A DNA stretch of 55,359 nucleotides from a virus (IMGVR_UViG_3300048580_000268:1-55359); one strand, 5' to 3'; positions 3,946 to 21,322 are shown, numbered from the stretch's first letter. Translations and numbers: made by a program. Notes: generated by a model from the sequence alone, not told the origin.

Positions 3946-3970
3946 CTCTCTATTACAATCGTTGTAAATA
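3946..3970 (-). promoter_or_regulatory. Variant copy of conserved promoter motif (TTTACAACGATTGTAATAGAGAG)
   Basis: Matches the TTTACAACG-nn-TATAAT-GAGA consensus with mismatches; upstream of the nuclease-RNAP genes. Confidence 0.55.
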
Positions 3971-3985
3971 CTAATACTGTATACG

Positions 3986-4507
3986 TCATGTAAAACAGTA
4001 GACACTTCTTGTCGGGTAGATGGCTACCCCTTGTAGGGCGGAGGTTAAAAGATCGTCAAACAACACACCTTCTTTGATACCGGCTTCTATTATCGAAGAA
4101 TAGACCTCTCCTGTTTGTAGGTTGAGTATTTGTTTTGAGTAATACTCAGATGGGTACACCGGTTTGAATTGCCTTGAATACTTCTGAGCAAACCAAGCAG
4201 GCCGCCAAGCCAAGTTACGATAATAAAGATTACTCTTATCGTTGTCTAACACAATAACTGTGTCTGGAATCGCCGACTTGTGGAACCCTGGTGAGATTGC
4301 TGGCTTAGCCACAAAGTGTTCGGCTACCAAAACTCTTACGGACCTGGTAAGTCTTACACCTCCTTCAGACAATGTGACCTTATAGTCACCTTGCATAGTT
4401 CTACTTTCAGACATGAGACGTTCTAGCCTTCTATTGTATACAGAGCCATAGTTATTTATGAGGTAATTACCCATACCTTTGATGGGTACCCACTCTTCAT
4501 CGGACAA
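3986..4507 (-). CDS. NUMOD4/HNH-type (degenerate) endonuclease-like protein
   Basis: EEWVPI..Y.INNYG.V, V..LVAEHF, DNDKSNL...NLAW; catalytic His residues appear lost. Confidence 0.65.
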   Translation of the reverse strand: MSDEEWVPIKGMGNYLINNYGSVYNRRLERLMSESRTMQGDYKVTLSEGGVRLTRSVRVLVAEHFVAKPAISPGFHKSAIPDTVIVLDNDKSNLYYRNLAWRPAWFAQKYSRQFKPVYPSEYYSKQILNLQTGEVYSSIIEAGIKEGVLFDDLLTSALQGVAIYPTRSVYCFT

Positions 4508-4794
4508 TTTTTACTCCTGCCTTGTAGGGGGGCGTCGTTTTTGACGAATTTCGGGGTTAAAAAAGTATTAGGGAAAATGTCATCCTTATACTACATACTA
4601 CACCAAGATCAGTCGTATAAGGTATACTAAATCTATAGAACTTTTTGACAAAAATATATGACGCGAACGACGCCGCTCAAAATAGTGCCGTTTAAACGAC
4701 TTTCGTGTAGTTTCATACACTTTTCTACTTATTTTAACAGCTTTTTCGTCCTGAAAAGGCGTCATATTTGAACACGTTTTTTCAAAGTTTCTCA

Positions 4795-6027
4795 TCAACA
4801 CTGCTCAAGTTCGATAGAATCAATCAATTTATCATAGAATTTTCGCTCATTGAAGCTTTTTTTTGAGGCCAATGATTCCTTAATTCCTCGATCGATCACC
4901 GAATTCGACGCCAAGATATAGTAGTAAAGGACGTCAAATGGGGTATTCAGCCGGTCAATTCTACCCTGACATTGCTCAAAGTTCTTGTACGAATATGTCA
5001 TTGAGTACATGATCATAGCGTTCGTATCTACACAATTCCAACCTTCTGCTCCCGATGTGTACTGCACAAGATACACCCATTTATCAGTGTCTGGGATAGG
5101 CTGCTTACGATGCCCATTCCACTCCGCGACGGTGATGTCATCAGCAAGCGTCCTGAGAATCTCAAGCTCGAAGTTGAAGGTGTAGAAGATGATTAGTTTG
5201 TCATGACACGTCATCAGTTTGCGAACCATCTCAAGACGAGACGGGTGTTCGTTCACAACGCGTCTCATCAGTCTAAAGACTTCTGCGATGTCGCGGACGG
5301 GAGCATCATCGTAAGGATTCCACCGACGAACAAACACGGTGTTAAACAGATTATGGTTGTACTCAACATCGATGTAGTTGATCACCCGCGTGGTATGTCG
5401 CTCGTATGGCATCTCTACAAGAACATCGTTACGCAGTACTTCGAGCCTCTGCTCGTTGAGGTAACCTTTGATCTTTGGGTATTTTGAGAAGGCTTCGTAT
5501 ACTACGTGCTGCATTTTGAAGTCAGTGATGTTCTTGTAAAACCCGTTGGCTATAAAGACGGGGGCATAATCCAACCACGAGTCTCCTGGGGTAGCGCTGA
5601 GAAGAATCCATCTGTTGTTTCTGGAAATTTTGAGGAATGACTTAACCCAAGCTCCATTTCCAACCAATCTCTGCTCGTCAAAGATGAAGAACCGATCTTG
5701 TAGACCCTCAAACTTACTAATGTTGTTCCAGGACTCCACGATGAGAGCGCCGTCTGAAGTATACTCTTGAGCTGTTGAAATTCCAAACCTTGCTGCTTCT
5801 GTTTCCCAATCCATACTATCACGCTTCTTGGCGGTTGTGATGACGACGATGTCACGAGGTGACTCCTTTTCTTTGTAGTACGATAGTACTGTCCGGGTTT
5901 TACCGCTCCCAACACCGCCGTGTAAGATTTTACCGTTTCCTAGATTTTTTACTGCTTCTTCCTGATGCGGTTGTAACTCATGCATAGTCAGTACGTACTC
6001 ATCTACTTGTAGGGCTAAGTTATTCAT
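4795..6027 (-). CDS. Superfamily 2 (SNF2-like) DNA helicase
   Basis: GVGSGKT Walker A, FDEQ, LSATP, Q..GRIDR. Confidence 0.9.
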   Translation of the reverse strand: MNNLALQVDEYVLTMHELQPHQEEAVKNLGNGKILHGGVGSGKTRTVLSYYKEKESPRDIVVITTAKKRDSMDWETEAARFGISTAQEYTSDGALIVESWNNISKFEGLQDRFFIFDEQRLVGNGAWVKSFLKISRNNRWILLSATPGDSWLDYAPVFIANGFYKNITDFKMQHVVYEAFSKYPKIKGYLNEQRLEVLRNDVLVEMPYERHTTRVINYIDVEYNHNLFNTVFVRRWNPYDDAPVRDIAEVFRLMRRVVNEHPSRLEMVRKLMTCHDKLIIFYTFNFELEILRTLADDITVAEWNGHRKQPIPDTDKWVYLVQYTSGAEGWNCVDTNAMIMYSMTYSYKNFEQCQGRIDRLNTPFDVLYYYILASNSVIDRGIKESLASKKSFNERKFYDKLIDSIELEQC

Positions 6028-6069
6028 AATTACATCCTTATACGACTAAAAAATAAAACCGTTGTGGAC

Positions 6070-6105
6070 AAAAAGGAAAGGGGCTGTATCAGCCCCCAAC
6101 CTTTT
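6070..6105 (-). terminator. Intrinsic terminator
   Basis: GGGGCTGATACAGCCCC hairpin followed by T-tract on minus strand. Confidence 0.75.
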
Positions 6106-6119
6106 GAGTTCTCCTCAGG

Positions 6120-6344
6120 TCAGTCTTCAACCTTTTCGTAACCGAGCAGGGTTCCGGTCTCGTCCTCCACGAAGACGTAGTACCCGGGCTCCGTCAACGA
6201 TCCGTTCTTGATGTCTTGATCGATCCGCTCCGCGTATGGCGGGAACTTCTTGATCCAGGCTTCAGGAACGACCGAAATCGTTTCCAGGGACACGTGGTCC
6301 ACGCGGCACGAGCCGTCACTCCAGAATGAGGTTACTGCAAGCAT
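6120..6344 (-). CDS. Cassette gene 9, 74 aa soluble hypothetical (MLAVTSFW...)
   Basis: AAAGGAG RBS and promoter motif upstream; start revised. Confidence 0.8.
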   Translation of the reverse strand: MLAVTSFWSDGSCRVDHVSLETISVVPEAWIKKFPPYAERIDQDIKNGSLTEPGYYVFVEDETGTLLGYEKVED

Positions 6345-6364
6345 GTTAACTCCTTTGTAGGTTT

Positions 6365-6388
6365 CTCTCATTATAAGCGCTGTAAAAA
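6365..6388 (-). promoter_or_regulatory. Conserved promoter motif
   Basis: TTTTTACAGCGCTTATAATGAGAG. Confidence 0.85.
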
Positions 6389-6601
6389 CTACGGTTTCAC
6401 GATGACCCGAGTCATTACTGCGTCATAGTTACCATCGGCAAGAATGATCCCCACCATTACAGTCGGTACAATCTCGAATGGAATATCAACGCCGTGGTAG
6501 ATGAAGCTATGATGTGTTTCTGAGTCTACCTCAGGCTTCACGCCTCCGTTGATAGCCGCGATGAGCGGAATGGTGTTCTCTTCAATCGGGATGATAATCA
6601 T
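6389..6601 (-). CDS. Hypothetical protein
   Basis: 70-aa ORF coupled to the upstream gene. Confidence 0.65.
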   Translation of the reverse strand: MIIIPIEENTIPLIAAINGGVKPEVDSETHHSFIYHGVDIPFEIVPTVMVGIILADGNYDAVMTRVIVKP

Positions 6602-6807
6602 CAGTTCTTCTTTGCTTCGAAGTAGTTCTTCAGTATGTCTGAAACGGTAGTGTCAGTAATCTTGCTGGCGGTTTCGGCCTTCTTCTCCATGAACTTAGCG
6701 TGGGAGAGAATTCCTGCCGCGTAAGCAGAGCCAAAACCAAAGACGGTCAAAGCTCCTAAGACATAACCTGCTGCGAACTTCATTACTTTCCTCCTGTTGA
6801 TTGACAA
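6601..6807 (-). CDS. Small membrane protein
   Basis: 68-aa ORF with one hydrophobic segment. Confidence 0.65.
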   Translation of the reverse strand: MSINRRKVMKFAAGYVLGALTVFGFGSAYAAGILSHAKFMEKKAETASKITDTTVSDILKNYFEAKKN

Positions 6808-6810
6808 ATT

Positions 6811-6848
6811 AAAAAAGGAAAAGCACCGTGATTGGTGCTCGTCCTTTT
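6811..6848 (-). terminator. Intrinsic terminator (type A)
   Basis: AGCACC-loop-GGTGCT hairpin flanked by AAGG/CCTT and T-tract. Confidence 0.75.
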
Positions 6849-6870
6849 GAGGTTGTTACCTCGGGTCTTC

Positions 6871-7020
6871 TCAGATGTCAGCGGTCAGCAGCCGCCGCAC
6901 ACCCTTCCGCACCGACGCATCGTGGTACCCGGCGATCCCCGCGTTGACAGCGTTGATGGCACCGAGTCCGGCGAAGACGGTGACGATGGTGTACAGGACG
7001 ACCTTGATGGCCTTCTTCAT
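6871..7020 (-). CDS. Cassette gene 8, 49 aa membrane protein MKKAIKVVLYTIVTVFAGLG...
   Basis: Hand-translated (below ORF-track cutoff); AAAGGAG RBS, GC-rich third codon positions. Confidence 0.8.
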   Translation of the reverse strand: MKKAIKVVLYTIVTVFAGLGAINAVNAGIAGYHDASVRKGVRRLLTADI

Positions 7021-7044
7021 GGAAGTCTCCTTTGTAGGTGGTTA

Positions 7045-7077
7045 TCTCATTATAAGCGTTGTAATTTTTGTTGACAA
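7045..7077 (-). promoter_or_regulatory. Conserved promoter motif, TTGTCA-17-TATAAT
   Basis: TTGTCAACAAAAATTACAACGCTTATAATGAGA. Confidence 0.85.
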
Positions 7078-7110
7078 GAAGAAAGCCCTTGTCAGGGGCT
7101 CGCTTCTTTT
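7078..7110 (-). terminator. Intrinsic terminator (type B)
   Basis: AGCCCCTGACAAGGGCT hairpin plus pyrimidine tract. Confidence 0.7.
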
Positions 7111-7123
7111 GATTACCTTTCAG

Positions 7124-7300
7124 TCAGTTCTTCATCCGACGCTTGACCTCCTTCTCCCAGGTCCGGGAGTTGCGCTCGTTGGTCGCCACCTCCACCGTCT
7201 TCAGGATCGTTCCTGCGATCCCGGCGACGACGGTGATGACGATGTACGGCTGCTCCTCCCAGACCTGCTTGGTCTTGGTCTTGAGCTGGTGGATGTTCAT
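7124..7300 (-). CDS. Cassette gene 7, 58 aa membrane protein MNIHQLK...
   Basis: GGAGG RBS; start revised; one TM-like segment. Confidence 0.8.
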   Translation of the reverse strand: MNIHQLKTKTKQVWEEQPYIVITVVAGIAGTILKTVEVATNERNSRTWEKEVKRRMKN

Positions 7301-7317
7301 GATTCCTCCTGTTTGTT

Positions 7318-7351
7318 CTCTCATTATAAGAGCTGTAAATAATGCGGACAA
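7318..7351 (-). promoter_or_regulatory. Conserved promoter motif, TTGTCC-17-TATAAT
   Basis: TTGTCCGCATTATTTACAGCTCTTATAATGAGAG. Confidence 0.85.
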
Positions 7352-7397
7352 AAAAGAGAAATCCTTGTAGGTTTTACGCTACAAGGACTATCTCTTT
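7351..7397 (-). terminator. Intrinsic terminator (type C)
   Basis: TCCTTGTAG-loop-CTACAAGGA hairpin plus T-tract. Confidence 0.75.
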
Positions 7398-7407
7398 CGA
7401 GACTGCT

Positions 7408-7542
7408 CTAGCTGAACAGTCGTCCGATCACGTTGGCGGCCCCCCGGATCACCCTGCGCATGAACAGCCCGGTCATCGTGATGATGATCAGGCAGCCCAA
7501 CAGGATGGTGCCGAGGAACGCGTTGACGGTGGATGCGAACAT
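7408..7542 (-). CDS. Cassette gene 6, 44 aa membrane protein MFASTVNAFLGTILLG...
   Basis: Hand-translated; AAAGGAG RBS; hydrophobic. Confidence 0.8.
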   Translation of the reverse strand: MFASTVNAFLGTILLGCLIIITMTGLFMRRVIRGAANVIGRLFS

Positions 7543-7563
7543 GGTGCTCCTTTAGTAGGTTGT

Positions 7564-7592
7564 CTCTCATTATAGGAGCTGTAATTTTTGTG
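7564..7592 (-). promoter_or_regulatory. Conserved promoter motif (no -35 match)
   Basis: CACAAAAATTACAGCTCCTATAATGAGAG. Confidence 0.8.
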
Positions 7593-7784
7593 CTATCCTT
7601 CGTCTAAATCTTCTGTAAGAAAATTAAACATGTGGTCCACGCGTTCTTGATACAATCCATCTATCAATCCTTGAAGAACACCTTCTAGCTCGTCGAAATT
7701 TCTCTGTAGGATTCGTGCTCTGAATTCAACATAGGCGATTGCTGCTACACCAATACCTATAGGAAAGACAAATTTATTAAACAT
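7593..7784 (-). CDS. Small membrane protein
   Basis: 63-aa ORF, AAAGGAG RBS, N-terminal TM segment; no own promoter motif. Confidence 0.7.
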   Translation of the reverse strand: MFNKFVFPIGIGVAAIAYVEFRARILQRNFDELEGVLQGLIDGLYQERVDHMFNFLTEDLDEG

Positions 7785-7798
7785 AGTAACTCCTTTTC

Positions 7799-7836
7799 AA
7801 AAAGGAAAAGCACCGCAATAGTGATGCTAATCCTTT
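7799..7836 (-). terminator. Intrinsic terminator (type A)
   Basis: Related in sequence to 6811-6848. Confidence 0.65.
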
Positions 7837-7852
7837 AACCTGTTAAGGTCAG

Positions 7853-8020
7853 TTAGTTGAGGCTGTTGGCGTAGAACGTCCTCAGACCTTCGAGTTCTTC
7901 GTGCGCTTCGTCAAGCTCGTCCAACACCTGGATGTGCTCCTGGTAGAGGTGGTACAAGTTCCACGAAAGCACCGCGAGCGCGATGATCTGGATAAGTGCA
8001 ATCAACAGTACGAACAACAT
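7853..8020 (-). CDS. Cassette gene 5, 55 aa TM plus coiled-coil protein MLFVLLIALIQ...
   Basis: Hand-translated; AAGGAG RBS. Confidence 0.8.
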   Translation of the reverse strand: MLFVLLIALIQIIALAVLSWNLYHLYQEHIQVLDELDEAHEELEGLRTFYANSLN

Positions 8021-8041
8021 TTCTGTCTCCTTCTGTGGTTA

Positions 8042-8074
8042 TCTCATTATACGCGCTGTAAATAATGTGGACAA
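8042..8074 (-). promoter_or_regulatory. Conserved promoter motif, TTGTCC-17-TATAAT
   Basis: TTGTCCACATTATTTACAGCGCGTATAATGAGA. Confidence 0.85.
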
Positions 8075-8111
8075 AAATAAGAAGCCTTGTCAAGACTAGA
8101 CTTCTTATTTT
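8073..8111 (-). terminator. Intrinsic terminator
   Basis: AAAATAAGAAG...CTTCTTATTTT inverted repeat. Confidence 0.7.
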
Positions 8112-8141
8112 GAGGTTACTACCTCGTGGGGTGTTATGGGT

Positions 8142-8285
8142 TCACTTCTTCGCCTTGGTGGCGAGGAGAGCGGCCAGACCAGTGAGCAGCATGGTGACCG
8201 CCCGCGTACGGGCCTTCTCCTTGCGGCGCTGTTCTGATCGCTGTCGGTTCGCTTCGACCAAGTCGAAGAAACGTGTTCCAGCCAT
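8142..8285 (-). CDS. Cassette gene 4, 47 aa basic protein with C-terminal hydrophobic segment MAGTRFFDL...
   Basis: Hand-translated; AAGGAG RBS. Confidence 0.8.
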   Translation of the reverse strand: MAGTRFFDLVEANRQRSEQRRKEKARTRAVTMLLTGLAALLATKAKK

Positions 8286-8307
8286 GTCAACTCCTTGTTG
8301 TAGGTTT

Positions 8308-8341
8308 CTCTCATTATAAGCGTTGTAAATAATGCGGACAA
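8308..8341 (-). promoter_or_regulatory. Conserved promoter motif, TTGTCC-17-TATAAT
   Basis: TTGTCCGCATTATTTACAACGCTTATAATGAGAG. Confidence 0.85.
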
Positions 8342-8371
8342 GAAGAAAGCCCTTGTCGGGGGCTCCCTTCT
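8341..8371 (-). terminator. Intrinsic terminator (type B)
   Basis: Near-identical to 7078-7110. Confidence 0.7.
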
Positions 8372-8380
8372 ATTGATAAC

Positions 8381-8548
8381 TCAGGTGTTGATGTGTCGGT
8401 CGTTGCCGGCCAAACCAGTCTGCTCATCCTTCAAGGCCTCGATCGTGCGCGTCATCACCAACATCTTCTGATGCTGGCGATAGATCACATAAGCGAGGAC
8501 CATGACGATGGTTCCCATGGTGTAGCTGTAAAGCGTCCAAAACAACAT
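8381..8548 (-). CDS. Cassette gene 3, 55 aa TM plus coiled-coil protein MLFWTLYS...
   Basis: AAAGGAG RBS; start revised; leader GGAGACAGAAATGTTGTT shared with 7853-8020. Confidence 0.8.
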   Translation of the reverse strand: MLFWTLYSYTMGTIVMVLAYVIYRQHQKMLVMTRTIEALKDEQTGLAGNDRHINT

Positions 8549-8565
8549 TTCTGTCTCCTTTGTTT

Positions 8566-8599
8566 CTCTCATTATAGGAGCTGTAAAAAATGTGGACAA
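8566..8599 (-). promoter_or_regulatory. Conserved promoter motif, TTGTCC-17-TATAAT
   Basis: TTGTCCACATTTTTTACAGCTCCTATAATGAGAG. Confidence 0.85.
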
Positions 8600-8632
8600 A
8601 AAGGTTAGGGGTGTTGCCACCCCTTTCCTTTT
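8598..8632 (-). terminator. Intrinsic terminator
   Basis: AGGGGTGGCAACACCCCT hairpin (GCAA tetraloop) plus T-tract. Confidence 0.75.
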
Positions 8633-8838
8633 CAGTTGTTGAGCTCTTCCCAGTGCTCGGGGCTGTAGAACTCCATCGGGTCGATGTCACGCTCGCCCAA
8701 GAACTCGTAGAACTGCCTGATGTTGCGCTGCTGGATGGCGATCGCCGTCATAGCGATGGCCCCCCAGACGTACGCAGACTTCTTCTCTTCGTAGTGGTTC
8801 TTGAGCTTGGTAACACCAGCCTTGATCTTGTCCTTCAT
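8632..8838 (-). CDS. Cassette gene 2, 68 aa protein MKDKIKAG...
   Basis: GGAGG RBS; start revised; short hydrophobic segment. Confidence 0.8.
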   Translation of the reverse strand: MKDKIKAGVTKLKNHYEEKKSAYVWGAIAMTAIAIQQRNIRQFYEFLGERDIDPMEFYSPEHWEELNN

Positions 8839-8862
8839 GGTTCCTCCGTTGGTAGGTGGTTG

Positions 8863-8895
8863 TCTCATTATAAGCGTTGTAAATAATGTGGACAA
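8863..8895 (-). promoter_or_regulatory. Conserved promoter motif, TTGTCC-17-TATAAT
   Basis: TTGTCCACATTATTTACAACGCTTATAATGAGA. Confidence 0.85.
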
Positions 8896-8937
8896 AAAAG
8901 AGAAGCCCCGTAGTTTTTACGCTACGAGACTTCTCTC
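8894..8937 (-). terminator. Intrinsic terminator (type C)
   Basis: Related to 7351-7397 (similar GCGTAAAA-containing loop). Confidence 0.75.
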
Positions 8938-8943
8938 CGTGAG

Positions 8944-9183
8944 TTACTTCGCCTTCTTGGCGGCGTCGTCGAGGATCTTCTCGTTGATCTTCTCGATCTT
9001 CTTCTCCCGGCGGTCCGCGACGCGGTTGCCGATGGCGGTCTTCGCCTTGTCCCAGTTGCGCGCGGCGACGGTACCCAGCAGGGCACCAGCGCCGAACACG
9101 ACTGCGGTGGCGAGGAACGCACCGGTCTCCGTGTCTTCGGTCTCGTCGTTGAAGTCGATCTCGTCGTTCACGATCTCGTCCAT
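8944..9183 (-). CDS. Cassette gene 1, 79 aa acidic-TM-basic protein
   Basis: GGAGG RBS; strongly GC-rich third codon positions. Confidence 0.8.
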   Translation of the reverse strand: MDEIVNDEIDFNDETEDTETGAFLATAVVFGAGALLGTVAARNWDKAKTAIGNRVADRREKKIEKINEKILDDAAKKAK

Positions 9184-9211
9184 TTCAATTCCTCCGTTTG
9201 GTAGGGTGTTT

Positions 9212-9241
9212 CTCTCATTATAAGAGCTGTAATTTTTGCGG
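9212..9241 (-). promoter_or_regulatory. Conserved promoter motif (no -35 match)
   Basis: CCGCAAAAATTACAGCTCTTATAATGAGAG. Confidence 0.85.
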
Positions 9242-9245
9242 TTTA

Positions 9246-9422
9246 TTACTCTTCTAAGTATGGATAAACAATGAAACTTACAAGCCTTTGGTTTGGGCCA
9301 GCTTTGAACATGGGATTCATAACCAAAGCATAGGGATGCTTTTCGTATAAATTGAGCAGCTCATCTTCAAGATATACAAAACCGACAGTTTCACTATCAA
9401 TTAGTATTGGTACGCGTTTCAT
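9246..9422 (-). CDS. Hypothetical protein (MKRVPIL...), start overlaps tRNA CCA end
   Basis: ORF trimmed to the ATG at the tRNA-Leu 3' end. Confidence 0.5.
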   Translation of the reverse strand: MKRVPILIDSETVGFVYLEDELLNLYEKHPYALVMNPMFKAGPNQRLVSFIVYPYLEE

Positions 9423-9511
9423 GGTGCCCCCAGTGGGATTCGAACCCACACGACTTTTTAAAGTCCTTCGGGTTTAAGCCGAATGCGTCTGCCTGATTTC
9501 GCCATGGGGGC
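9422..9511 (-). tRNA. tRNA-Leu(TAA)
   Basis: GCCCCCA/TGGGGGC acceptor stem, anticodon loop CTTAAAC, long variable arm, GTTCGAATC, encoded CCA. Confidence 0.92.
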
Positions 9512-9517
9512 TGGTGG

Positions 9518-9868
9518 CTACACGTCTGTCAAGTCCTTCCAAGAAGTTGTCCTGAACAGTTCTCTACAGAGACCGTCGGACTCGTAGAAATCGACAAACC
9601 CAACCCAGTCATCAGGGAAAATCATCTCGTGTTCTTGATCGAGACTATCGCGGTCCTGGGCCCAGTTGACGTGCTCGTGAACGACGATCTCTGAATTGGT
9701 CATTGCTTCTACGACCCACAGGTCACCATGCTCGAACATGATCTCGAAGTAAATCGGGTACCAAGTACCATCGATGATCTTCGGGAAACCCTCAACTTGA
9801 ATATTGACTGCTGGAATAATCACACCATTAATCTTAACGCAATTATTGAGATCTTCCAAGACGTCCAT
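9518..9868 (-). CDS. Hypothetical acidic protein
   Basis: 116-aa ORF with AAGGAG RBS. Confidence 0.7.
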   Translation of the reverse strand: MDVLEDLNNCVKINGVIIPAVNIQVEGFPKIIDGTWYPIYFEIMFEHGDLWVVEAMTNSEIVVHEHVNWAQDRDSLDQEHEMIFPDDWVGFVDFYESDGLCRELFRTTSWKDLTDV

Positions 9869-9881
9869 TAATTACTCCTTA

Positions 9882-10118
9882 TTAATACGGATCGGCGTAC
9901 TTACCATGCCAAGGATCATTACACGGCTCTAGGTGTTTACCACCCAGATCATTATACATAATCAAGCGTCGAGTCTTTTGCCGGTCACTCTGGCAGGTTG
10001 GGCACGGATAAACTTCTTTATCCTTAGACTCCGCCCAAGACAACCAAACTAAAAGGCCTAAAACAAAAAGAAAGAGGCCCCAAAAATACCAAGTACCGAA
10101 CCACTCTAAAACTGTCAT
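9882..10118 (-). CDS. Membrane protein with CxxC...CxxxxH putative zinc site (start revised to MTVLEWF)
   Basis: The longer ORF overlaps a tRNA; TM helix, CPTC, CNDPWH. Confidence 0.65.
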   Translation of the reverse strand: MTVLEWFGTWYFWGLFLFVLGLLVWLSWAESKDKEVYPCPTCQSDRQKTRRLIMYNDLGGKHLEPCNDPWHGKYADPY

Positions 10119-10138
10119 TATCTGTCTTTTTCCTTTTG

Positions 10139-10211
10139 TGGGCTGGGAGGGAATTGAACCCCCGACCGAGTTATTATGAGTAACCTGCTCTAACCACTGA
10201 GCTACCAGCCC
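10139..10211 (-). tRNA. tRNA with CAT anticodon, probably Ile2 (lysidine type), alternatively elongator Met
   Basis: GGGCTGG/CCAGCCC acceptor stem, TAGCTCAGTGGTTAGAGCA D-arm, CTCATAA loop, GTTCAATTC. Confidence 0.9.
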
Positions 10212-11559: not shown

Positions 11560-11672
11560 AAAAATGAGAAGCTGGGGCTAACTAGCCAACGAAACTAGTT
11601 ATTAGCGATCTTTCTTCATCGCGCCAGGTAGGTGGGGTTTGCTCCCACTCATTACGTGTCTTACCTTCTTCT
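11560..11672 (-). ncRNA. Putative ~105-nt small RNA (promoter to T-tract, no ORF)
   Basis: Directly follows the promoter motif; closing stem plus three internal stems; ends in TTTTTTATTTTT. Confidence 0.6.
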
Positions 11673-11697
11673 CATTATAAGCCCTGTAATTTTTGCG
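11670..11697 (-). promoter_or_regulatory. Conserved promoter motif driving the ncRNA region
   Basis: CCGCAAAAATTACAGGGCTTATAATGAGA. Confidence 0.85.
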
Positions 11698-11699
11698 GA

Positions 11700-16293: not shown

Positions 16294-16305
16294 AGAACCC
16301 CCTTT

Positions 16306-16827
16306 CTAGAAAAACTGCTTTTCGACAAGATAAGCACAGAATTGATACCATATTTCGATATCTCTTTGATCTGTCTGTGCTCCATTCAGCGGGAACATAC
16401 CGCCTTCTCCGTTATAGCTGTAAGTCCTCCACACAAAATTACTAAGAATGTTGTCCACCTGCATTCTATTAAATCTTTCGTTGTAATATTGCGAAAGATT
16501 AAGCTCGCTCACGAACTCCCAAAACCATTCGTTAGCATTAATATCGGTTTGAAATTCCGCCCGTCTAGAAAAAGCAATCATCATTTCAAGAACGGAACAC
16601 CCCGACATAAAGCCAAAATCTGAAATTGAAATGCCTGTGTTCTGACAAAACTCACGTCTGAGCATGAGGCCGTCTTCGACCCGGTTGTCATCCCCCAAAA
16701 TTAACCAGATAAATTCTGTATCATACAACGTTTGAAGTAGATCAGAATATAACTCGGCTGGAGTATCGGACAACATCACTTTTGCGTAGAGCCAATCGAA
16801 ATATAGACTTTCTAATGGCTCGTTCAT
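16306..16827 (-). CDS. Conserved hypothetical protein
   Basis: YFDWL, DDNR..DG..LR, SVLEMMI, GGMFPL motifs. Confidence 0.75.
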   Translation of the reverse strand: MNEPLESLYFDWLYAKVMLSDTPAELYSDLLQTLYDTEFIWLILGDDNRVEDGLMLRREFCQNTGISISDFGFMSGCSVLEMMIAFSRRAEFQTDINANEWFWEFVSELNLSQYYNERFNRMQVDNILSNFVWRTYSYNGEGGMFPLNGAQTDQRDIEIWYQFCAYLVEKQFF

Positions 16828-16829
16828 AG

Positions 16830-17630
16830 TTAATCACCTGGTCTAAATTTAGTAATAGAGTGTTTAAGAGAAGCTCGCTCCTCTTCAGCCTCATACTCCA
16901 AACCAAGAACTTCGACTGAGTAGCTCCCTCGGTCTTTAAGAATTTCATACTCTGCTTTGAGTTTGTCGTTCCTAACATAAACCACGTTCTGATCCGATGA
17001 GCCATGGCCGAAGTTTAGAGTGCCAACTACTTCTTTGTAATTGTAAATTGGCACATCAGTCTGATCAACAAGAATATCATCACTGGCGTAGTATGTGAGC
17101 GTAGTCTGTTTGTAGTCTAACTCTTCGGCCCAGAATTCATCTTTGTTAAGAATATACGGAGAATCTTTAGTTCTCTTACTCTCTTCAGAATCCTGATCCC
17201 AATCGGCATTTACCTCGTTGAATACACTCACTACGTCTGATCCTTTATCCGATTCACTTTTAAAATACTCTTCGCGATAAAGGCGCATACCTTCTGTGAA
17301 TCCGTGCTCATTAATTAACATGTCTCGGCGTTCAATTGCATCAAAGTCTACTTTGATGTCTGCCGGGTCGTTGTTTGGCGGATCAATTACAATATCGGTT
17401 AAAGAGTCGAGTAAATCTTCTGTATGATCTTCCTCAGCAGAATCTTCGGCCCAAATAATATCTGGAAACTTAATGACGGTAGCTTCTTCATCAGGCTCAA
17501 TGATAATATCTGATCTTTTCATACGAACTAAGCCAAAACCGAGACCGAAGCCGCCGCAAAACACGGCGACCCCGATCCCGAAAGGCTTGGTGTTCGGATG
17601 ATGAATAAGTTTTTGTATTCTATCGATCAC
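16830..17630 (-). CDS. Hypothetical acidic protein with N-terminal membrane anchor
   Basis: 266-aa ORF. Confidence 0.75.
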   Translation of the reverse strand: MIDRIQKLIHHPNTKPFGIGVAVFCGGFGLGFGLVRMKRSDIIIEPDEEATVIKFPDIIWAEDSAEEDHTEDLLDSLTDIVIDPPNNDPADIKVDFDAIERRDMLINEHGFTEGMRLYREEYFKSESDKGSDVVSVFNEVNADWDQDSEESKRTKDSPYILNKDEFWAEELDYKQTTLTYYASDDILVDQTDVPIYNYKEVVGTLNFGHGSSDQNVVYVRNDKLKAEYEILKDRGSYSVEVLGLEYEAEEERASLKHSITKFRPGD

Positions 17631-18525
17631 CTCGCACCCCTATCTTGTCGTAAATGACTCCGTCGACGTTGAAGTCTAGAAGGATAGATCGCTCCCAACC
17701 GTTGACAAAATCTCGTTGATAAGCGTCAAATATCCCGAAGTCAATATAGTTGTCTCCTTCCGGGCCAAGAATCCAACCCACTACGGCGCCAGCACTAGAA
17801 TGCTCAATACCAAAATGGTCATAGATCTCATTCAAGAACACATGGCCTCTAATCTGAAGCTTGTTGTTGAAGAGGTTTTGAGCGGCTTGAACATACAGAC
17901 GATTTATCTCAGAATTCTTTTCCCAGTAAGGAGAAGCTTCGTCGAACCATCTAGCGTAAGGAGACCACCGATTAGGATCGGCAATCTTGATCACTTCTTT
18001 TGAGCCGTCTTCACGAGTGATTATTCGGTTTTCGATAGCATGATAAATATCAAGCTCTCTATCGGCACCAATTTCGCTTTTGACTCGAATGCGATACTCT
18101 TCGTACGCAGTTGAGACAGCAGCCACCGCCGCGGTAAGCGACGCATTACGACGTTTAAGAGTAACGTGCGACCCAGTAAGAGCTCCAATAGAGAGAGCTC
18201 CAACAATAATAGAGGGTCCGTACAGCTTAGCAATCTTTACCGTGTTCTTGCCGTACACATACCCTAGGTCTTTGTAGTACTCACGTTCGCTATAACTATC
18301 GTCGCTGCTGTTTAACCTACGCTCGCCCATAGCTTTAACGTCTTCGATTTCCTCCTGAAAATCGTCAACAGCATCGGGAAGACTTAGCGTTGCTCGACAA
18401 GCAAGAACAGTTCCTCCGAGAACACCGACTATACCGAAACCAAAGAACGTTTGAGGAGAGTTCTTCTTTGACTTGAGCGCTGACCTAACTATTGTTCTTG
18501 TTAATTTATTAGGAACAAACCGCAT
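17620..18525 (-). CDS. DUF6353-like protein (paralog 1)
   Basis: SP...FG.GIVG, Y..YR.RV, G.VFLNE.Y..., LDFNVDG. Confidence 0.7.
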   Translation of the reverse strand: MRFVPNKLTRTIVRSALKSKKNSPQTFFGFGIVGVLGGTVLACRATLSLPDAVDDFQEEIEDVKAMGERRLNSSDDSYSEREYYKDLGYVYGKNTVKIAKLYGPSIIVGALSIGALTGSHVTLKRRNASLTAAVAAVSTAYEEYRIRVKSEIGADRELDIYHAIENRIITREDGSKEVIKIADPNRWSPYARWFDEASPYWEKNSEINRLYVQAAQNLFNNKLQIRGHVFLNEIYDHFGIEHSSAGAVVGWILGPEGDNYIDFGIFDAYQRDFVNGWERSILLDFNVDGVIYDKIGVRGDR

Positions 18526-18543
18526 CTTTCTACCTAACTTTCT

Positions 18544-19158
18544 TTAAATGGCCTGAGCTGGCGGCAAGTTTAGTAAGAAGCCGTCACGAGTTTGCCTGAT
18601 TTCTGCAAACTGAAGATGCTCCCAACCCCATTTGTTGTCAATATAACTTCCGGGCAGCCCGACAATTGAGTTAAGATCCGCCATCGAAACAACCTGATAC
18701 AGGTCAATAATATCTTGAAGTCTCTCAAGCACAAGCTCGGCGTCACTCCGAGAATTGAAAATTATTTCCGTGTCGCTTTGCCTGGACCTGTTTGGTTGGT
18801 CTGGAAGATTTGCCCTAGGCGCGGAAGGCCGATTGATTGGGTTATTGTAGGTGACCCTCGGCCGGTACTCTGGCGTCCTAGTCCTCGAATGTGGGGAATC
18901 TCCATACACCATCTTTTCGATACCCTTTGTGGTCGCCTCGACCAACAGGTTACGAAATGCAGGAAGGAGCACCTCAGCACCAAGGTACTGCATTGCGGAA
19001 CTGAATTCCCCACCAAAGAAAACCATTTTTATGCGAGCACCAAGAGGCTTTTTACGAGAAATTACCTTACCGGATAGCTCAACTTTTTCGATTTTTTTGA
19101 CAGGCTCGATGCTTGTTTCGGCAGCTTTCTTCTTATTACTATTACCCTGATAATCCAT
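18544..19158 (-). CDS. Conserved hypothetical protein
   Basis: Y.GNS.K, R.DAE.VL, D.KWGW motifs. Confidence 0.75.
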   Translation of the reverse strand: MDYQGNSNKKKAAETSIEPVKKIEKVELSGKVISRKKPLGARIKMVFFGGEFSSAMQYLGAEVLLPAFRNLLVEATTKGIEKMVYGDSPHSRTRTPEYRPRVTYNNPINRPSAPRANLPDQPNRSRQSDTEIIFNSRSDAELVLERLQDIIDLYQVVSMADLNSIVGLPGSYIDNKWGWEHLQFAEIRQTRDGFLLNLPPAQAI

Positions 19159-19603
19159 TTGGGTCCTTGATAATGTTTTGAGGAATGAGGCTAGACGGAA
19201 TTGGCGGAGGCCCGGTAGGCTTGTCCTGATCAGCCTTTTCTACCAAATCAGAAGGGACAATACCGTTGATAAACGCTGCGGCAGAGTTGTCGTCTGTGGA
19301 CAACTCCATGTAAAGGGAAATATACGCGGCACTGTGAACAAACTCCTCACGAAGTTGATCACTCTTCATGAAAAACTTTCCATCTTCAGACTTAACACCA
19401 TAAGAAAGAAGAATAAGACGCTTAAATTCCTCGACAAGTCGCTTGTTGTCACCGGTCTCAATAATGCGCTGCATGGTAGCAGTGAAGCCGCCGTCCATGT
19501 TCACTTCCAACTCGACTAACTCAGGCTTGGAGAGGTTGAAGTAGAAAGTTTCAGTAATGGTATTACCATTAAAATCTTCGTAGGTAATTGGGCGCTTAAG
19601 CAT
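19142..19603 (-). CDS. Hypothetical protein, possibly tail-chaperone-like (start revised to MLKRPI)
   Basis: TYEDFNG, FYFNLSK.EL, YG.KSEDG motifs. Confidence 0.65.
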   Translation of the reverse strand: MLKRPITYEDFNGNTITETFYFNLSKPELVELEVNMDGGFTATMQRIIETGDNKRLVEEFKRLILLSYGVKSEDGKFFMKSDQLREEFVHSAAYISLYMELSTDDNSAAAFINGIVPSDLVEKADQDKPTGPPPIPSSLIPQNIIKDPNGLSG

Positions 19604-19787
19604 TGTTACTCTTATCCTTTTCTGGTTTATCGTCGAGATCGAAATGGGTGTTGTAGGCCACCTCAATCAGCTTGGCTGCGACCCAACCACCAAGACTCGT
19701 AAGCAAAAGCTTAGCTACCTGATGAAACATTGGGTCTGTATCTTCTTTGTAAATATCAAATTCTAGTAGCTTTTTTGACTTGCTCAT
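19596..19787 (-). CDS. Small membrane protein
   Basis: 63-aa ORF with GGAGG RBS. Confidence 0.6.
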   Translation of the reverse strand: MSKSKKLLEFDIYKEDTDPMFHQVAKLLLTSLGGWVAAKLIEVAYNTHFDLDDKPEKDKSNNA

Positions 19788-19805
19788 TATTCCTCCGTTT
19801 GTGTT

Positions 19806-20540
19806 TTAGATAGGCTTGACGTAATTGTAGTTAAAAGCCAGGCAAGGTCGTCCATCCTCCGAAAGGACTGTCGAAAAGTTTAGTTCCATGAGCTGATCAG
19901 AATCCCATCCCAATTCGCTCGAAAGCGAAGTGTTAGGAAGGTTAATAAGGTCATAGAACTCATCTAAAGTCACATACAGCTCGTTCATTACTTTTGAGTT
20001 TATGTCGTTCTGAGCTTTTCGTAGAGTTTCCATATCTGACATGAAATATCGACGCGTGTAAAGCTCACAGCACATTACTTCACCCCGACCAGAGAGTACG
20101 ACCATGTCTGGTGATTTGTTGGAAACCACGTCCCGAGCAATATCGTCTTTGATTATTTGCTCTTTGTGCTTTCCGATTTCTTCAACTACCTTTGTTCGGT
20201 ATTCAGAAAATGCTCTTTCCGTAACAGTGTATGCGCTAATCGCCGCAGCGGTTCTCTGAGCACCAAGCTTACTACCGTAGGCAATGGCCCCGATTGTAAC
20301 CGCGCATGTAGTTATCGGTGGAATATAGAATTTCCAAACAAGATTTGCGTTTTCTTTAAGTTTAGTCGTTTTGTCTTCGGCGGTGCTACCTACTTGATCA
20401 ATAGTGCGAGCCGCTTTGAACGAGGCAGTTGCTGTCAAATATGCAGTTGTTACAACGCCAAAAATACTTAATCCGGTCAGTATTGGGCCTGTGTTTTTGT
20501 TGAGGAGTTTTGATGTATGACGAATGTAATTTTGAATCAT
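19806..20540 (-). CDS. DUF6353-like protein (paralog 2; start revised to MIQNY)
   Basis: P.ILTGL...GVVTTA, Y..KV.E..G, R.F.SD, LGW; similar layout to 17620-18525. Confidence 0.7.
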   Translation of the reverse strand: MIQNYIRHTSKLLNKNTGPILTGLSIFGVVTTAYLTATASFKAARTIDQVGSTAEDKTTKLKENANLVWKFYIPPITTCAVTIGAIAYGSKLGAQRTAAAISAYTVTERAFSEYRTKVVEEIGKHKEQIIKDDIARDVVSNKSPDMVVLSGRGEVMCCELYTRRYFMSDMETLRKAQNDINSKVMNELYVTLDEFYDLINLPNTSLSSELGWDSDQLMELNFSTVLSEDGRPCLAFNYNYVKPI

Positions 20541-20698
20541 CGACGGCGCATCTCCCTGACAAAAATCCAGATGAGCCAAAGCCCTCCGGTAATTAGAGTC
20601 AGAAGGATATCCATCACAAAACTTAAACAACCGTAGTTGTTGTTATTACTCATGATGTATGCTTCTCCTATTGGTTGATAAATAGTTACGTGTTTCAT
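20537..20698 (-). CDS. Small membrane protein (...DILLTLITGGLWLIWIFVREMRRR); alternative start 20653
   Basis: Hand-translated; RBS at both starts; stop overlaps the next start. Confidence 0.7.
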   Translation of the reverse strand: MKHVTIYQPIGEAYIMSNNNNYGCLSFVMDILLTLITGGLWLIWIFVREMRRR

Positions 20699-20715
20699 TA
20701 CCCCTCCTCTAAATT

Positions 20716-20820
20716 AAAAAAATAAAAAAGAAGCATTTATGGAGGAGCTCGCCCTGGTTGGGAGAGCCCCTCCAACTGTTCCTTTTGGTAAGTTGTAATT
20801 TGGAAAAGCTTACGCTCTCC
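20716..20820 (-). ncRNA. Putative ~100-nt small RNA (promoter to T-tract)
   Basis: Follows the promoter motif; GUAAG/CUUAC stem, GGAGGGGCUC/GAGCUCCUCC hairpin, TTTTTTATTTTTT end. Confidence 0.55.
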
Positions 20821-20845
20821 ATTATAGGACCTGTAATTCTTGCGG
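20817..20845 (-). promoter_or_regulatory. Conserved promoter motif
   Basis: CCGCAAGAATTACAGGTCCTATAATGGAG. Confidence 0.8.
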
Positions 20846-20906
20846 ATGGCCAATTTGAAACCGTTTGCCCAAAAATCCCCCCCGGGGAAAAAATAAAAAT
20901 CGTTGT

Positions 20907-20967
20907 AAAAATGAGAAACACAGAAGCCGTGCAAGACTGTTAAGTCTCACACAGCTTCTGTGTTTTT
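20907..20967 (-). terminator. Long hairpin/terminator
   Basis: AAACACAGAAGC...GCTTCTGTGTTT inverted repeat. Confidence 0.7.
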
Positions 20968-20983
20968 ACCTCCGTAGTAGGGT

Positions 20984-21274
20984 CTAGTTCTTCGGTCGAA
21001 TGAACAGCGGCATGGCCTTGCTCGTGATCACGTGCTTCTCTTCGTATGCAACGATGATCAGGATGCCCAGAAGGTTACCCAGGACGACCATCACCGTATC
21101 CGGACTGATCCGTCGAGGCCGTGTATTGGCCTTCAACGCATTCAGTCTGTCAAGGTGGTTGATCAATCCCTGGTACTCTTCGGACTCCGGACCAAACATC
21201 TGCATGTCGTCGACAACACGTTCGATCAAGATGTCAAGGTACTTGGCGTCGTTTCGTTCGAAAACTCCGAACAT
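20984..21274 (-). CDS. Stand-alone cassette gene, 96 aa membrane protein (start revised to MFGVFER)
   Basis: Own promoter motif and terminator; C-terminal TM segment followed by YEEKHVITSKA. Confidence 0.8.
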   Translation of the reverse strand: MFGVFERNDAKYLDILIERVVDDMQMFGPESEEYQGLINHLDRLNALKANTRPRRISPDTVMVVLGNLLGILIIVAYEEKHVITSKAMPLFIRPKN

Positions 21275-21294
21275 AGTTTGCCTTTCTGTAGGTA

Positions 21295-21322
21295 TCTCAT
21301 TATAAGCGCTGTATTTACTGCG
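21295..21322 (-). promoter_or_regulatory. Conserved promoter motif
   Basis: CCGCAGTAAATACAGCGCTTATAATGAGA. Confidence 0.8.

Follow-up and report, generated by a model that had tools for sequence, protein, structure and literature searches.

The Thermus phage P23-45 encodes two two-barrel phage polymerases, each with its own multi-copy motif, and the available part of that study uses as evidence the finding that motif and polymerase go together in related phages (PMC10770324). YonO, the enzyme of the Bacillus prophage SPbeta, is described in the accessible portion of its report as starting at one site only, with an undefined promoter, and as serving a single late operon and not early genes (PMC5467207). 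In the section of their work available here, Ruprich-Robert and Thuriaux placed a protein of phage 1706 within the YonO-like family, as a '1706 family' (PMC2919709).

Here we describe a promoter-like signal of about 30 bases that occurs 13 times in a phage genome of 55,359 nucleotides, called the window below. Given that the motif always stands alongside an unusual phage polymerase in distant relatives, whose bacterial hosts are unrelated, it is probably that enzyme's own promoter, and a promoter that has probably not been described so far.

Results

Throughout the record the coding strand is the minus strand, on which every gene and every motif copy lies. The census comprises 12 strong copies of CCRCA-N5-TACA-N5-TATAAT-GAGA, which in full degenerate form read [C/G][C/A]RCA-N5-TACA-N5-TATAAT-G(A/G)(G/A)(A/G), and one degenerate copy, so that the motif is present at all 13 places named by the first-pass annotation. 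The copies and neighbouring elements are listed below, with the first base of each strong copy's hexamer in brackets.

21295..21323, minus strand: motif copy CCGCA-GTAAA-TACA-GCGCT-TATAAT-GAGA (21304), the first candidate promoter past the tail genes, with a 96-aa ORF, 21274-20984, behind it
20817..20845, minus strand: motif copy with TATAAT-GGAG (20826); heads the replication block, 20630-12078, itself without an internal copy
11670..11698, minus strand: motif copy (11679); heads a stretch from about 11650 to 9246 in which small ORFs accompany three tRNA genes
9213..9241, minus strand: motif copy (9222); heads a 79-aa ORF, 9183-8944
8863..8891, minus strand: motif copy with TTGTCC 17 nt 5' of the hexamer (8872); heads a 68-aa ORF, 8838-8632
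8567..8595, minus strand: motif copy with TTGTCC (8576); heads a 55-aa ORF, 8548-8381
8309..8337, minus strand: motif copy with TTGTCC (8318); heads a 47-aa ORF, 8285-8142
8042..8070, minus strand: motif copy with TTGTCC (8051); heads a 55-aa ORF, 8020-7853
7565..7593, minus strand: motif copy (7574); heads a 44-aa ORF, 7542-7408
7319..7347, minus strand: motif copy with TTGTCC (7328); heads a 58-aa ORF, 7300-7124
7045..7073, minus strand: motif copy with TTGTCA (7054); heads a 49-aa ORF, 7020-6871
6366..6394, minus strand: motif copy (6375); heads a 74-aa ORF, 6344-6120
3948..3976, minus strand: variant copy TACA-ACGAT-TGTAAT-AGAGAGAAGAGG, without box 1; 926 nt upstream of the polymerase HYG motif
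3077..3637, minus strand: exonuclease (DUF2800, phrog_3953), directly upstream of the polymerase gene in the same orientation
401..3061, minus strand: two-barrel RNA polymerase, 886 aa, SGADFDGD; candidate reader of the motif
7360..7389, minus strand: terminator-like hairpin with T-run, an example that directly precedes a motif copy
7083-7101, 8607-8624, 8337-8357, 20918-20963, 6821-6840, 6079-6097 and 7809-7828: further such hairpins

Start codons lie 22-33 nt past the hexamer, the short leader in front of them carrying a Shine-Dalgarno site, and classical intrinsic terminators stand at the cassette edges. The cassette of the copy at 8567..8595 is missing in a strain variant.

When up to 3 mismatches are allowed, the pattern TACAGCNCTTATAATGAGAGA is found 11 times, on the minus strand in every case, and never in 100 shuffles. 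A weight matrix built from the 12 sites recovers those same 12 alone at 12 bits or more (12 minus, 0 plus); no copy therefore falls within or before the structural genes on either strand, in agreement with the first-pass annotation, which noticed none in the structural operon. Box 1, which is CCRCA in the window phage and TCGCA in most relatives, is followed by 5 nt ending in T. The hexamer is perfect in 12/12 strong copies and at most sites in relatives, with A at its position 2 (-11) in all 12. The boxes are asymmetric, without a dyad, and fixed in position relative to the hexamer and GAGA; their centres lie 9.5-10 bp apart, which places all three on one side of the helix.

Mean pairwise identity between copies is 0.81 at -19..+10 versus 0.24-0.32 across flanking and coding sequence, and the 10 downstream proteins compared yield a single weak BLAST pair. 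Recent duplication hence does not account for the conservation, since the motif stays alike amid unrelated flanks, and the spacer positions TACA and upstream RCA, whose conservation the first-pass annotation had singled out, are by this contrast under selection.

The sigma-A holoenzyme reads TATAAT followed by G, actinobacterial sigma-A promoters often need the -10 element alone, and sigma-70-family factors require A at hexamer position 2, through sigma region 2. In the window, 6/12 copies match the -35 consensus at 4-5 of 6 positions, and TTGTC(C/A)-17-TATAAT was located in six copies, exactly as had been claimed (hexamers at 7054, 7328, 8051, 8318, 8576 and 8872). Among relatives, a match of at least 4/6 to TTGACA occurs at 12/147 sites versus an 11% background, one of at least 5/6 at 1/147 sites, and the TGn extension at 2/159. 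The 'textbook SigA' -35 layout thus cannot be retained as part of the signal. The window phage has such a box because the T-run of the preceding terminator abuts box 1, and the comparison with relatives indicates that this sigma-70-like element is peculiar to the window phage and outside the conserved signal.

The motif architecture is found in 20/20 genomes that encode a homologue of the 886-aa protein (37-70% identity), from phages of Lactococcus, Faecalibacterium, Arthrobacter, Streptomyces, Gordonia, Rhodococcus, Curtobacterium and Microbacterium. Across these polymerase-encoding genomes (931 kb), the coding strand holds 162 sites and the opposite strand 2; a hexamer-blind scan gives 204 and 5, respectively, and a Shine-Dalgarno site with an ORF follows 138/159 sites at a median of 27 nt. 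Information content per genome, 32-42 bits over 29 positions, is inflated by site selection, but reaches far past the 12 positions on which that selection was based. In named phages of 7 host genera, CA-N5-TACA-N5-TATAAT with at most one mismatch occurs 90 times forward and once in reverse, the backward-pattern control giving 3+3 matches. As a negative control, seven phages that lack the polymerase and infect the same host species or genus (L. lactis, R. equi and Streptomyces) gave 1 match in 325 kb; the polymerase-bearing ReqiPepy6 gave 15. As presence or absence, motif and RNA polymerase go together, all the positives belonging to one lineage.

IMG/VR records tell the same story. The polymerase is encoded in 28/49 records with the window-type 19-mer (14/14 of those at least 90% complete) and in 33/50 examined with the family-type pattern (11/11 of those at least 90% complete), hence in 25/25 near-complete motif-bearing records over the two patterns; in 18 of the motif-bearing records, all 38 additional matches share the strand of the polymerase gene. 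Exact spacing in every polymerase-encoding relative across two host phyla, together with near-absence from other phages of the same hosts, points to a phage-encoded reader. The first-pass annotation's proposal of a phage protein reading these positions stands to that extent, and its SigA -35 box falls away. All phages with the polymerase belong to a single lineage, however, and any other protein specific to that lineage would show the same co-occurrence.

The boxes themselves drift. FP_oengus carries five copies of a variant, ACGCG-N5-WACA-N5-YTTTAT, whose hexamers (CTTTAT or TTTTAT) lack A at position 2 in 5/5; the hexamer is TTTAAT at 5/8 Eevee sites, and position 2 is mostly T or G, with A absent from 6/11 hexamers, in a genome (G024) whose polymerase is sister to that of FP_oengus (SH-aLRT 99). 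The L. lactis phages 1706 (TATAGT in 9/9, with YCRCA) and P118 (TATAAT, with TTTTA) differ, as does box 1 between two phages of one Arthrobacter strain; variation therefore tracks phage lineage and not host. The near-invariant Arg109, in the second HTH of the polymerase, is replaced in G022 and P118, where the CG of box 1 is lost, and also in Bing, where TCGCA is kept.

The 886-aa protein matches phrog_4291 (E 0), and its catalytic motif SGADFDGD (DFDGD) is invariant in 24 homologues. With tblastn it matches the phage 1706 region encoding orf75 and 12 other Lactococcus phage records; the homologues in phage 1706 and ReqiPoco6 bear the GenBank label 'structural protein'. An AlphaFold model (pLDDT 81) retrieved with Foldseek QDE-1 (E 1.3e-9), the Thermus phage gp64 RNA polymerase (8f72, E 8.7e-8), P23-45 gp96 (E 2e-4) and, weakly, the crAss-like virion polymerase gp66 (6vr4, E 1.3e-2), and by these matches the protein folds as a two-barrel RNA polymerase. 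Pfam places Sigma70_r4_2 at residues 86-113, among the N-terminal HTHs, and HTH_23 at residues 856-881, a C-terminal HTH, which bears out its description as an HTH-bearing RNA polymerase; the N-terminal domain has no significant structural match in Foldseek (best E 0.23). The 886-aa protein gives the sole HTH or sigma match among 26 proteins scanned against Pfam at E <=0.01 (25 right-arm proteins and one encoded immediately upstream of that arm), with no MotA, AsiA, sigma or other HTH besides it.

The thirteenth copy was rightly called degenerate: its hexamer, at 3957, is TGTAAT, the TACA-N5-hexamer arrangement is kept and box 1 is absent. Its score of 12.3 bits, versus 11.2 for the best other-strand match, is by itself not above chance, and we accept the copy as real because of synteny rather than score. 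The best-scoring site ahead of the polymerase gene lies 891-1057 nt before the enzyme's conserved HYG motif in 16/20 genomes, so the position upstream of the nuclease-polymerase genes, pointed out at first pass, is itself conserved; a purine-rich tail of the AGAAGGGATAGAA kind follows most of these sites. By position and sequence the copy is a member of a syntenic subclass present in relatives. Behind it come a small ORF, the exonuclease and polymerase genes and then an 85-aa ORF, an operon that in the closed genome adjoins the lysis and structural genes, the polymerase gene being the last of the right arm.

Discussion

On balance we favour the reading in which the copies are promoters of a type peculiar to this phage lineage and the HTH-bearing polymerase of the phage recognises them. 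This single-polypeptide two-barrel enzyme would recognise the motif as duplex DNA through its built-in HTH modules and initiate at or just past GAGA. The 12 full copies would drive nine single-gene cassettes, each of promoter, small ORF and terminator, along with the tRNA and small-ORF block, the replication block and one ORF more, and the box-1-less thirteenth would drive the nuclease-polymerase operon. Weighing against this reading are the lack of any copy before the structural genes, the fit of TATAAT-G to sigma-A, the classical terminators, the late role of YonO and the N-terminal domain's want of a significant structural match. The first polymerase molecules might be delivered in the virion, as hinted by the 'structural protein' labels of two homologues, or might arise from weak use of the TATAAT hexamer by host sigma-A. 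A bolder version, possible though doubtful, makes the enzyme a self-contained 'holoenzyme' whose two-barrel core and sigma-region-4-like HTHs read TCGCA, TACA and TATAAT as a tripartite duplex promoter without a host factor. It would be made late, at the same time as the virion proteins, from the variant promoter that lacks box 1; packaging and injection of the enzyme would then free early transcription from the host; if true, this would explain how promoter and low G+C were kept across moves of one lineage between Firmicutes and Actinobacteria.

The alternatives differ chiefly in the part they give to the host enzyme. Sigma-A might use the hexamer as its -10 element while a phage factor at box 1 and TACA, either some small early protein that has escaped recognition or the 886-aa protein itself, acting as an activator through its HTH domains, replaces the -35 contact in the style of T4 middle promoters. 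The perfect TATAAT of the window copies and most relatives suits this scheme, as do the flanking intrinsic terminators, which are signals obeyed by host polymerase, and the late-gene role of YonO, the one characterised relative, so far as the available account describes it. The T4 MotA box is centred near -29, and a start about 7 nt past the hexamer would centre box 1 there too. Yet such a factor would have to engage host enzymes from two phyla while box 1 and TACA stay the same, several lineages have all or most hexamers without the position-2 A (TTTAAT, CTTTAT, TGTAAT), and the Pfam scan offers no candidate outside the polymerase, leaving small proteins of unknown fold; we therefore consider it unlikely.

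A purely host-driven account, in which these are ordinary strong sigma-A promoters conserved from a common ancestor or by cassette duplication, with no phage factor, draws on the six -35-bearing copies and on cassette gain and loss between strains. We give it very little probability: copies 81% identical lie amid unrelated flanks and downstream proteins, the spacing of box 1 and TACA is exact at 37-70% polymerase identity in two host phyla, the -35 match of relatives is at background, and polymerase-less phages of the same hosts all but lack the motif. There is little probability, too, that box 1 and TACA act chiefly as an operator at which a conserved phage protein, possibly through the polymerase HTHs, shuts off or times host-driven early transcription, the polymerase itself initiating elsewhere, for instance at a late promoter near the genome ends. 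The place of the polymerase gene beside lysis and structural genes resembles that of yonO beside its late operon, in the part of the record available, and the polymerase-operon copy, having no box 1, would escape such a repressor. Asymmetric boxes, fixed against the hexamer and GAGA, nevertheless suggest the footprint of a polymerase more than an operator of the usual kind, and no conserved alternative promoter was found at the left end, only a palindrome beside the genome end.

Comparison with known systems

T4 middle promoters combine a TATAAT-like -10 with a phage-specific box in the -35 place, through MotA/AsiA sigma appropriation in which the MotA box replaces the -35. The present signal shares this layout and differs in its second box (TACA) within the spacer, in hexamers that depart from the sigma-70 consensus in some lineages and in the lack of a MotA or AsiA relative among the 26 scanned proteins. 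T7-type promoters, of which each lineage has its own variant, are likewise asymmetric, high-information signals of about 30 bp that extend into the first transcribed bases (GGGAGA in T7, putatively GAGA here). The window motif, however, is tripartite with two variable 5-nt gaps, and its candidate reader is two-barrel and not Pol I-like; a T7-type single-subunit polymerase promoter was rejected on this fold and on the lack of a T7-family Pfam match. N4 promoters are hairpins, unlike the dyad-less window motif, while the 'structural protein' labels raise the possibility of delivery with the DNA, as for the N4 vRNAP and the crAss-like phi14:2 gp66.

The candidate polymerase is, like YonO, a single-polypeptide two-barrel enzyme with a DxDGD loop. 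Unlike the single late operon in the available account of YonO, the window phage has 13 sites, all before non-structural genes. The nearest parallel is P23-45, for which the available text reports measured start sites, ChIP and rifampicin resistance, the window phage being known from sequence alone (PMC10770324). The window enzyme carries HTH modules and its candidate promoter a sigma-70-like TATAAT. Helix-turn-helix is not a term used in the available part of the P23-45 account, and the motifs there are described only as AT-rich and GC-rich, so that the likeness is one of description and not base by base (PMC10770324). In both cases a sigma-less two-barrel phage polymerase (gp96, the virion enzyme, and gp64, the non-virion enzyme, in P23-45) goes with a multi-copy motif upstream of non-structural genes, and in both, as far as the excerpted study goes, relatives with the enzyme carry the motif and relatives without it lack the motif (PMC10770324).

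A conserved promoter motif on the minus strand

The 13 places at which the first-pass annotation had seen a promoter motif with a conserved spacer align without gaps when read on the minus strand. Twelve of the 13 copies, each named here by the first base of its hexamer, conform to [C/G][C/A]RCA-N5-TACA-N5-TATAAT-G(A/G)(G/A)(A/G), the first element being referred to as box 1. A purine-rich ribosome-binding site lies 3' of the motif, and in 10 of the 12 copies a start codon follows 22-33 nt past the hexamer. Allowing up to 3 mismatches, a 21-nt core finds 11 copies in the window versus 0 in 100 shuffles, and a matrix of the 12 sites scanned across both strands recovers the 12 copies and nothing else. 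A candidate spacing of TACA-N8-TATAAT gave matches not beyond chance; the copies themselves show TACA-N5-TATAAT. As noticed previously, the structural genes have no motif copy before them.

Mere recent duplication had been named as the circumstance that would rob this conservation of meaning. Mean pairwise identity among the 12 copies is 0.81 from -19 to +10 versus 0.24-0.32 in every flanking segment, and the 10 proteins encoded downstream of copies contain a single weak BLAST pair; recent duplication is therefore not what keeps the motif alike. A search for near-identical DNA in named phages found none. The leader past the hexamer is conserved too, reading GAGACCCCTA(C/T)GAAAGGA in many actinophages (e.g., Hoshi, Bing, the relative G032, ReqiPoco6 and Duffington) and ..ACCTAC..AAGGAG in several window copies (e.g., 7020-7048), and may be a 5' UTR or translation signal that these genomes have in common.

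The host-like layout first described, TTGTC(C/A) 17 nt upstream of the hexamer, is present in six copies, but beyond the window the -35-like box occurs at background frequency (12 of 147 sites versus 11%). Terminator-like hairpins and T-runs sit directly upstream of many motif copies, and the TTG of the apparent -35 box is the end of a terminator T-run abutting box 1.

Putative transcription units and a weak hint of expression

Between 9.2 and 6.1 kb, the copies, small ORFs and hairpin/T-run terminators together define a row of nine cassettes, each consisting of a promoter, a small ORF (44-79 aa) and a terminator. Three further copies head other units.

Motif copies heading other units
21304, minus strand: heads a 96-aa ORF
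20826, minus strand: heads the replication block (primase-polymerase, ssDNA-binding/annealing protein, two DUF6353 paralogues)
11679, minus strand: heads a block with three tRNA genes (10813, 10211, 9511)

The DUF6353 paralogues (phrog_2152) of the replication block lie at 19806-20630 and 17620-18525 and flank a protein with a match to Pfam Phage_TAC_17 ('tail assembly chaperone'), which is unusual among replication genes.

Contigs from three metatranscriptome runs cover the cassette region. Of the 12 upper contig ends at five cassettes, 11 lie 12-125 nt downstream of the hexamer and the remaining one extends beyond it; at copy 7054, two RNA runs end at 7025 and 7029, whereas a DNA run continues. 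Copy 8318 is crossed outright by three RNA-library contigs. Given that RNA libraries may contain DNA and that contig ends cannot show transcription starts, these contigs offer at most a weak hint that the cassette units are expressed, and they are silent on which polymerase acts. In two RNA-library runs, contigs connect 8356 with 8626 via 22 other letters, and a third run has the same loose end. Exactly one promoter-ORF-terminator cassette (window 8357-8625) is therefore missing from a related strain, which makes cassettes units of gain and loss. Elsewhere, in ReqiPoco6 (42687) and the relative G024 (33785), a putative tRNA 5' part, recognized by eye, starts ~8 nt past a motif hexamer; if the tRNA begins there, transcription must start within those 8 nt.

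The motif travels with a phage RNA polymerase

An exact 19-mer of the window type is found in 49 IMG/VR records, 28 of which encode a homologue (45-70% identity) of the window's 886-aa two-barrel RNA polymerase, as do all 14 of those at least 90% complete. Further motif matches in 18 of the 19-mer records fall on the polymerase-gene strand in 38 of 38 cases. A family-type pattern, TCGCA-N5-TACA-N5-TATAATGAGA, matched at least 115 IMG/VR stretches; 50 records among the matches listed were examined, longer contigs first, and the polymerase is encoded in 33, among them all 11 that are near-complete.

Relatives scored on a 12-position core (19 genomes, 13 of them named; 931 kb) yield 162 coding-strand sites versus 2 on the other strand, and a scan blind to the hexamer yields 204 versus 5. 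A Shine-Dalgarno site and an ORF lie 3' of 138 of 159 sites (median gap 27 nt, median ORF 77 aa). FP_oengus scores 0 on the 12-position core, yet bears five copies of its own variant, ACGCG-N5-WACA-N5-YTTTAT. Its genome (MG711463.1) also repeats the word TGATATTT 35 times on the coding strand, often right before start codons. Seven polymerase-less phages of the same hosts (L. lactis sk1, c2, Tuc2009 and P087; R. equi ReqiDocB7 and ReqiPine5; Streptomyces phiC31) give 1 match in 325 kb, compared to 15 in the polymerase-bearing ReqiPepy6. Motif and polymerase therefore occur together across relatives, in positive genomes that all belong to one lineage.

Across relatives TACA and the frame of the hexamer hardly vary. 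Lineage-specific drift affects box 1, the hexamer and the bases downstream of it, and all copies within a genome change together.

Lineage variants of the motif
Window: box 1 CCRCA; hexamer TATAAT
G022 (nearest relative, 69% identity): box 1 TAACA; hexamer TATAAT
Circum: box 1 TCGCG-TAAAT; hexamer TATAAT
P118: box 1 TTTTA; hexamer TATAAT
1706: box 1 YCRCA; hexamer and downstream bases TATAGT + AGAAAG
Eevee: box 1 TCGCA; hexamer and downstream bases TTTAAT + AGACCCC
FP_oengus: box 1 ACGCG; hexamer and downstream bases CTTTAT + GGAA

The motif differs between two L. lactis phages and likewise between two phages that share a single Arthrobacter strain as host. In a comparison of HTH recognition helices with box 1, the near-invariant Arg109 of the second HTH is replaced in G022 and P118, whose box 1 has lost CG, and likewise in Bing, where TCGCA is retained. 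G024 and FP_oengus, whose polymerases are sisters in a quick IQ-TREE tree (SH-aLRT 99), both have T-rich hexamers followed by GGAA. TGn is found at 2 of 159 sites, and A at hexamer position 2 is lost in whole lineages; hexamers lacking this A are hard to square with sigma-70-family recognition.

The degenerate copy reported upstream of the nuclease-polymerase genes (hexamer TGTAAT at 3957, minus strand) is indeed degenerate and alone does not exceed chance. In 16 of 20 genomes, nevertheless, the top-scoring site within 1.6 kb upstream of the polymerase gene is located 891-1057 nt ahead of the HYG motif of the polymerase; box 1 of these sites is usually weak, and most bear a distinctive purine-rich tail, AGAAGGGATAGAA. 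This predicted second promoter class heads the nuclease-polymerase operon.

The polymerase and its family

The polymerase ORF (401-3061, minus strand) contains SGADFDGD and aligns over its full length with phrog_4291 ('RNA-dependent RNA polymerase'). Pfam recognizes only Sigma70_r4_2 (residues 86-113, above cut-off) and HTH_23 (residues 856-881, just below cut-off), and among 26 proteins scanned none besides the polymerase has an HTH or sigma domain. The AlphaFold model, for which 24 homologues were used (pLDDT 81.3, pTM 0.64), matches QDE-1 (Foldseek E 1.3e-9), Thermus phage gp64-type RNA polymerases (8f72; 8.7e-8), plant RDR2, P23-45 gp96 (2e-4) and, weakly, a crAss-like virion polymerase; a sequence search of solved structures returned chance matches only (E ~0.05). 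A fold search with the N-terminal 215 residues yielded no match with an E-value of 0.001 or lower; its weak matches are small HTH domains (e.g., DeoR, sigma region 4, AraC-type). Pfam and the model together indicate at least two, perhaps three, HTH units, which Koert et al. report as well (available text of preprint 10.1101/842583). A search of the window for a second copy of the N- or C-terminal part gave chance matches only, inside a hydrolase-like frame.

Within the collection searched, tblastn detected homologues in 250 named phage records, many of which come from teaching collections, with Arthrobacter, Gordonia, Streptomyces, Lactococcus, Curtobacterium, Rhodococcus, Microbacterium and Faecalibacterium as hosts. 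They are usually annotated 'HTH DNA-binding protein' or 'RNA-dependent RNA polymerase'; in GenBank, those of 1706 (orf75) and ReqiPoco6 (gp106) are labeled 'structural protein'. In the portions of the sources available, the polymerase belongs to the '1706 family' of YonO-like proteins (PMC2919709) and is the 'signature' HTH protein of an Actinobacteria/Firmicutes phage supercluster (Koert et al., preprint 10.1101/842583). One in-frame stop interrupts the homologue in ReqiPepy6 (GU580941.1, 73546-76260; TAA) and in the IMG/VR record G051 (TAG); sequencing error, gene splitting or read-through could each account for these stops. Two further short frames of the IMG/VR record G060 (55284-55541 and 57613-57858) weakly match residues 8-97, which comprise the invariant HYG..R.SGRYPWGSG segment and the first HTH, and may be stand-alone copies of this N-terminal module.

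Genome ends and layout

The window is a complete IMG/VR record with nearly all credible genes on the minus strand. Its ends overlap by 10 nt, and because both (1-60, 55300-55359) share CCCTCTTCAT, the record closes on itself as a circle or a full unit. In the closed genome, the nuclease-polymerase operon is followed 3' by a G-rich hairpin, a putative end site, the endolysin gene and the structural genes. The hairpin (GAGGGGGGGAGGGGG...CCCCCCCTC) lies just inside the window ends, and a like element follows the polymerase region in the relative G025.

At the left genome end, a search for late promoters yielded only a conserved palindrome and 0 motif copies. The palindrome (window ~55280-55330, minus strand) comprises an A/T run, CCCCGNGGGG and then ATATTT or ACTTTT; it recurs in the first 30-40 nt of Bilo, Hoshi, Bing, Circum, Teacup, Shiba, Eevee, Camille, Duffington, P118 and 1706, and is thus common to phages of Actinobacteria and of Lactococcus. 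Possible interpretations are a site beside a cohesive end and a bidirectional terminator. Positions 46001-48000, within an 884-aa ORF (45300-47954), reach 62.5% G+C versus ~44% elsewhere. A 673-codon stop-to-stop frame (48406-50427, minus strand) carries GYSAGG (GxSxG), which suggests a hydrolase or esterase.

Which protein reads the motif

On balance, the motif is probably read directly by the phage polymerase. This reading is favored because the boxes, with centers 9.5-10 bp apart, share one face of the helix, because the polymerase bears HTH units, and because no other HTH or sigma protein was found among the 26. Counted against it are the motif's absence before structural genes, the classical terminators flanking the cassettes, the lack of a significant structural match for the polymerase N-terminal domain, the single lineage of all positive genomes and the three RNA-library contigs that cross one promoter; YonO, moreover, is a late-gene enzyme (available text of PMC5467207). 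Under direct recognition, the first enzyme molecules might be delivered in the virion, at which the 'structural protein' labels hint, or might arise from weak firing of host sigma-A at TATAAT, akin to the dual host/phage promoters envisaged by the first-pass annotation.

Such a conserved, easily recognized promoter provides an annotation rule that marks transcription units in all these genomes, and a 30-bp template with purified enzyme would allow one to ask how a two-barrel polymerase of minimal size locates and melts a promoter. Polymerase-promoter pairs are possible orthogonal expression parts for Gram-positive hosts, with natural specificity variants in the hexamer (TATAAT, TATAGT, TTTAAT, CTTTAT) and box 1 (TCGCA, TAACA, TTTTA). 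If the enzyme is host-independent, this would bear on the cross-phylum spread of the lineage noted by Koert et al. (available text of preprint 10.1101/842583).

Our literature search found no description of the motif and no promoter definition for any YonO-like enzyme in the text available, although subscription papers and supplements might still list putative promoters; the available text of the Koert et al. preprint (10.1101/842583) uses the word 'promoter' 0 times, and that of the 2017 YonO study leaves the enzyme's own promoter open (PMC5467207). Promoters of this kind are known, and Thermus phage P23-45 offers a precedent for direct recognition by a phage polymerase (available text of PMC10770324); what is new here is a candidate cognate promoter of a phage-encoded polymerase in a family without a defined one.
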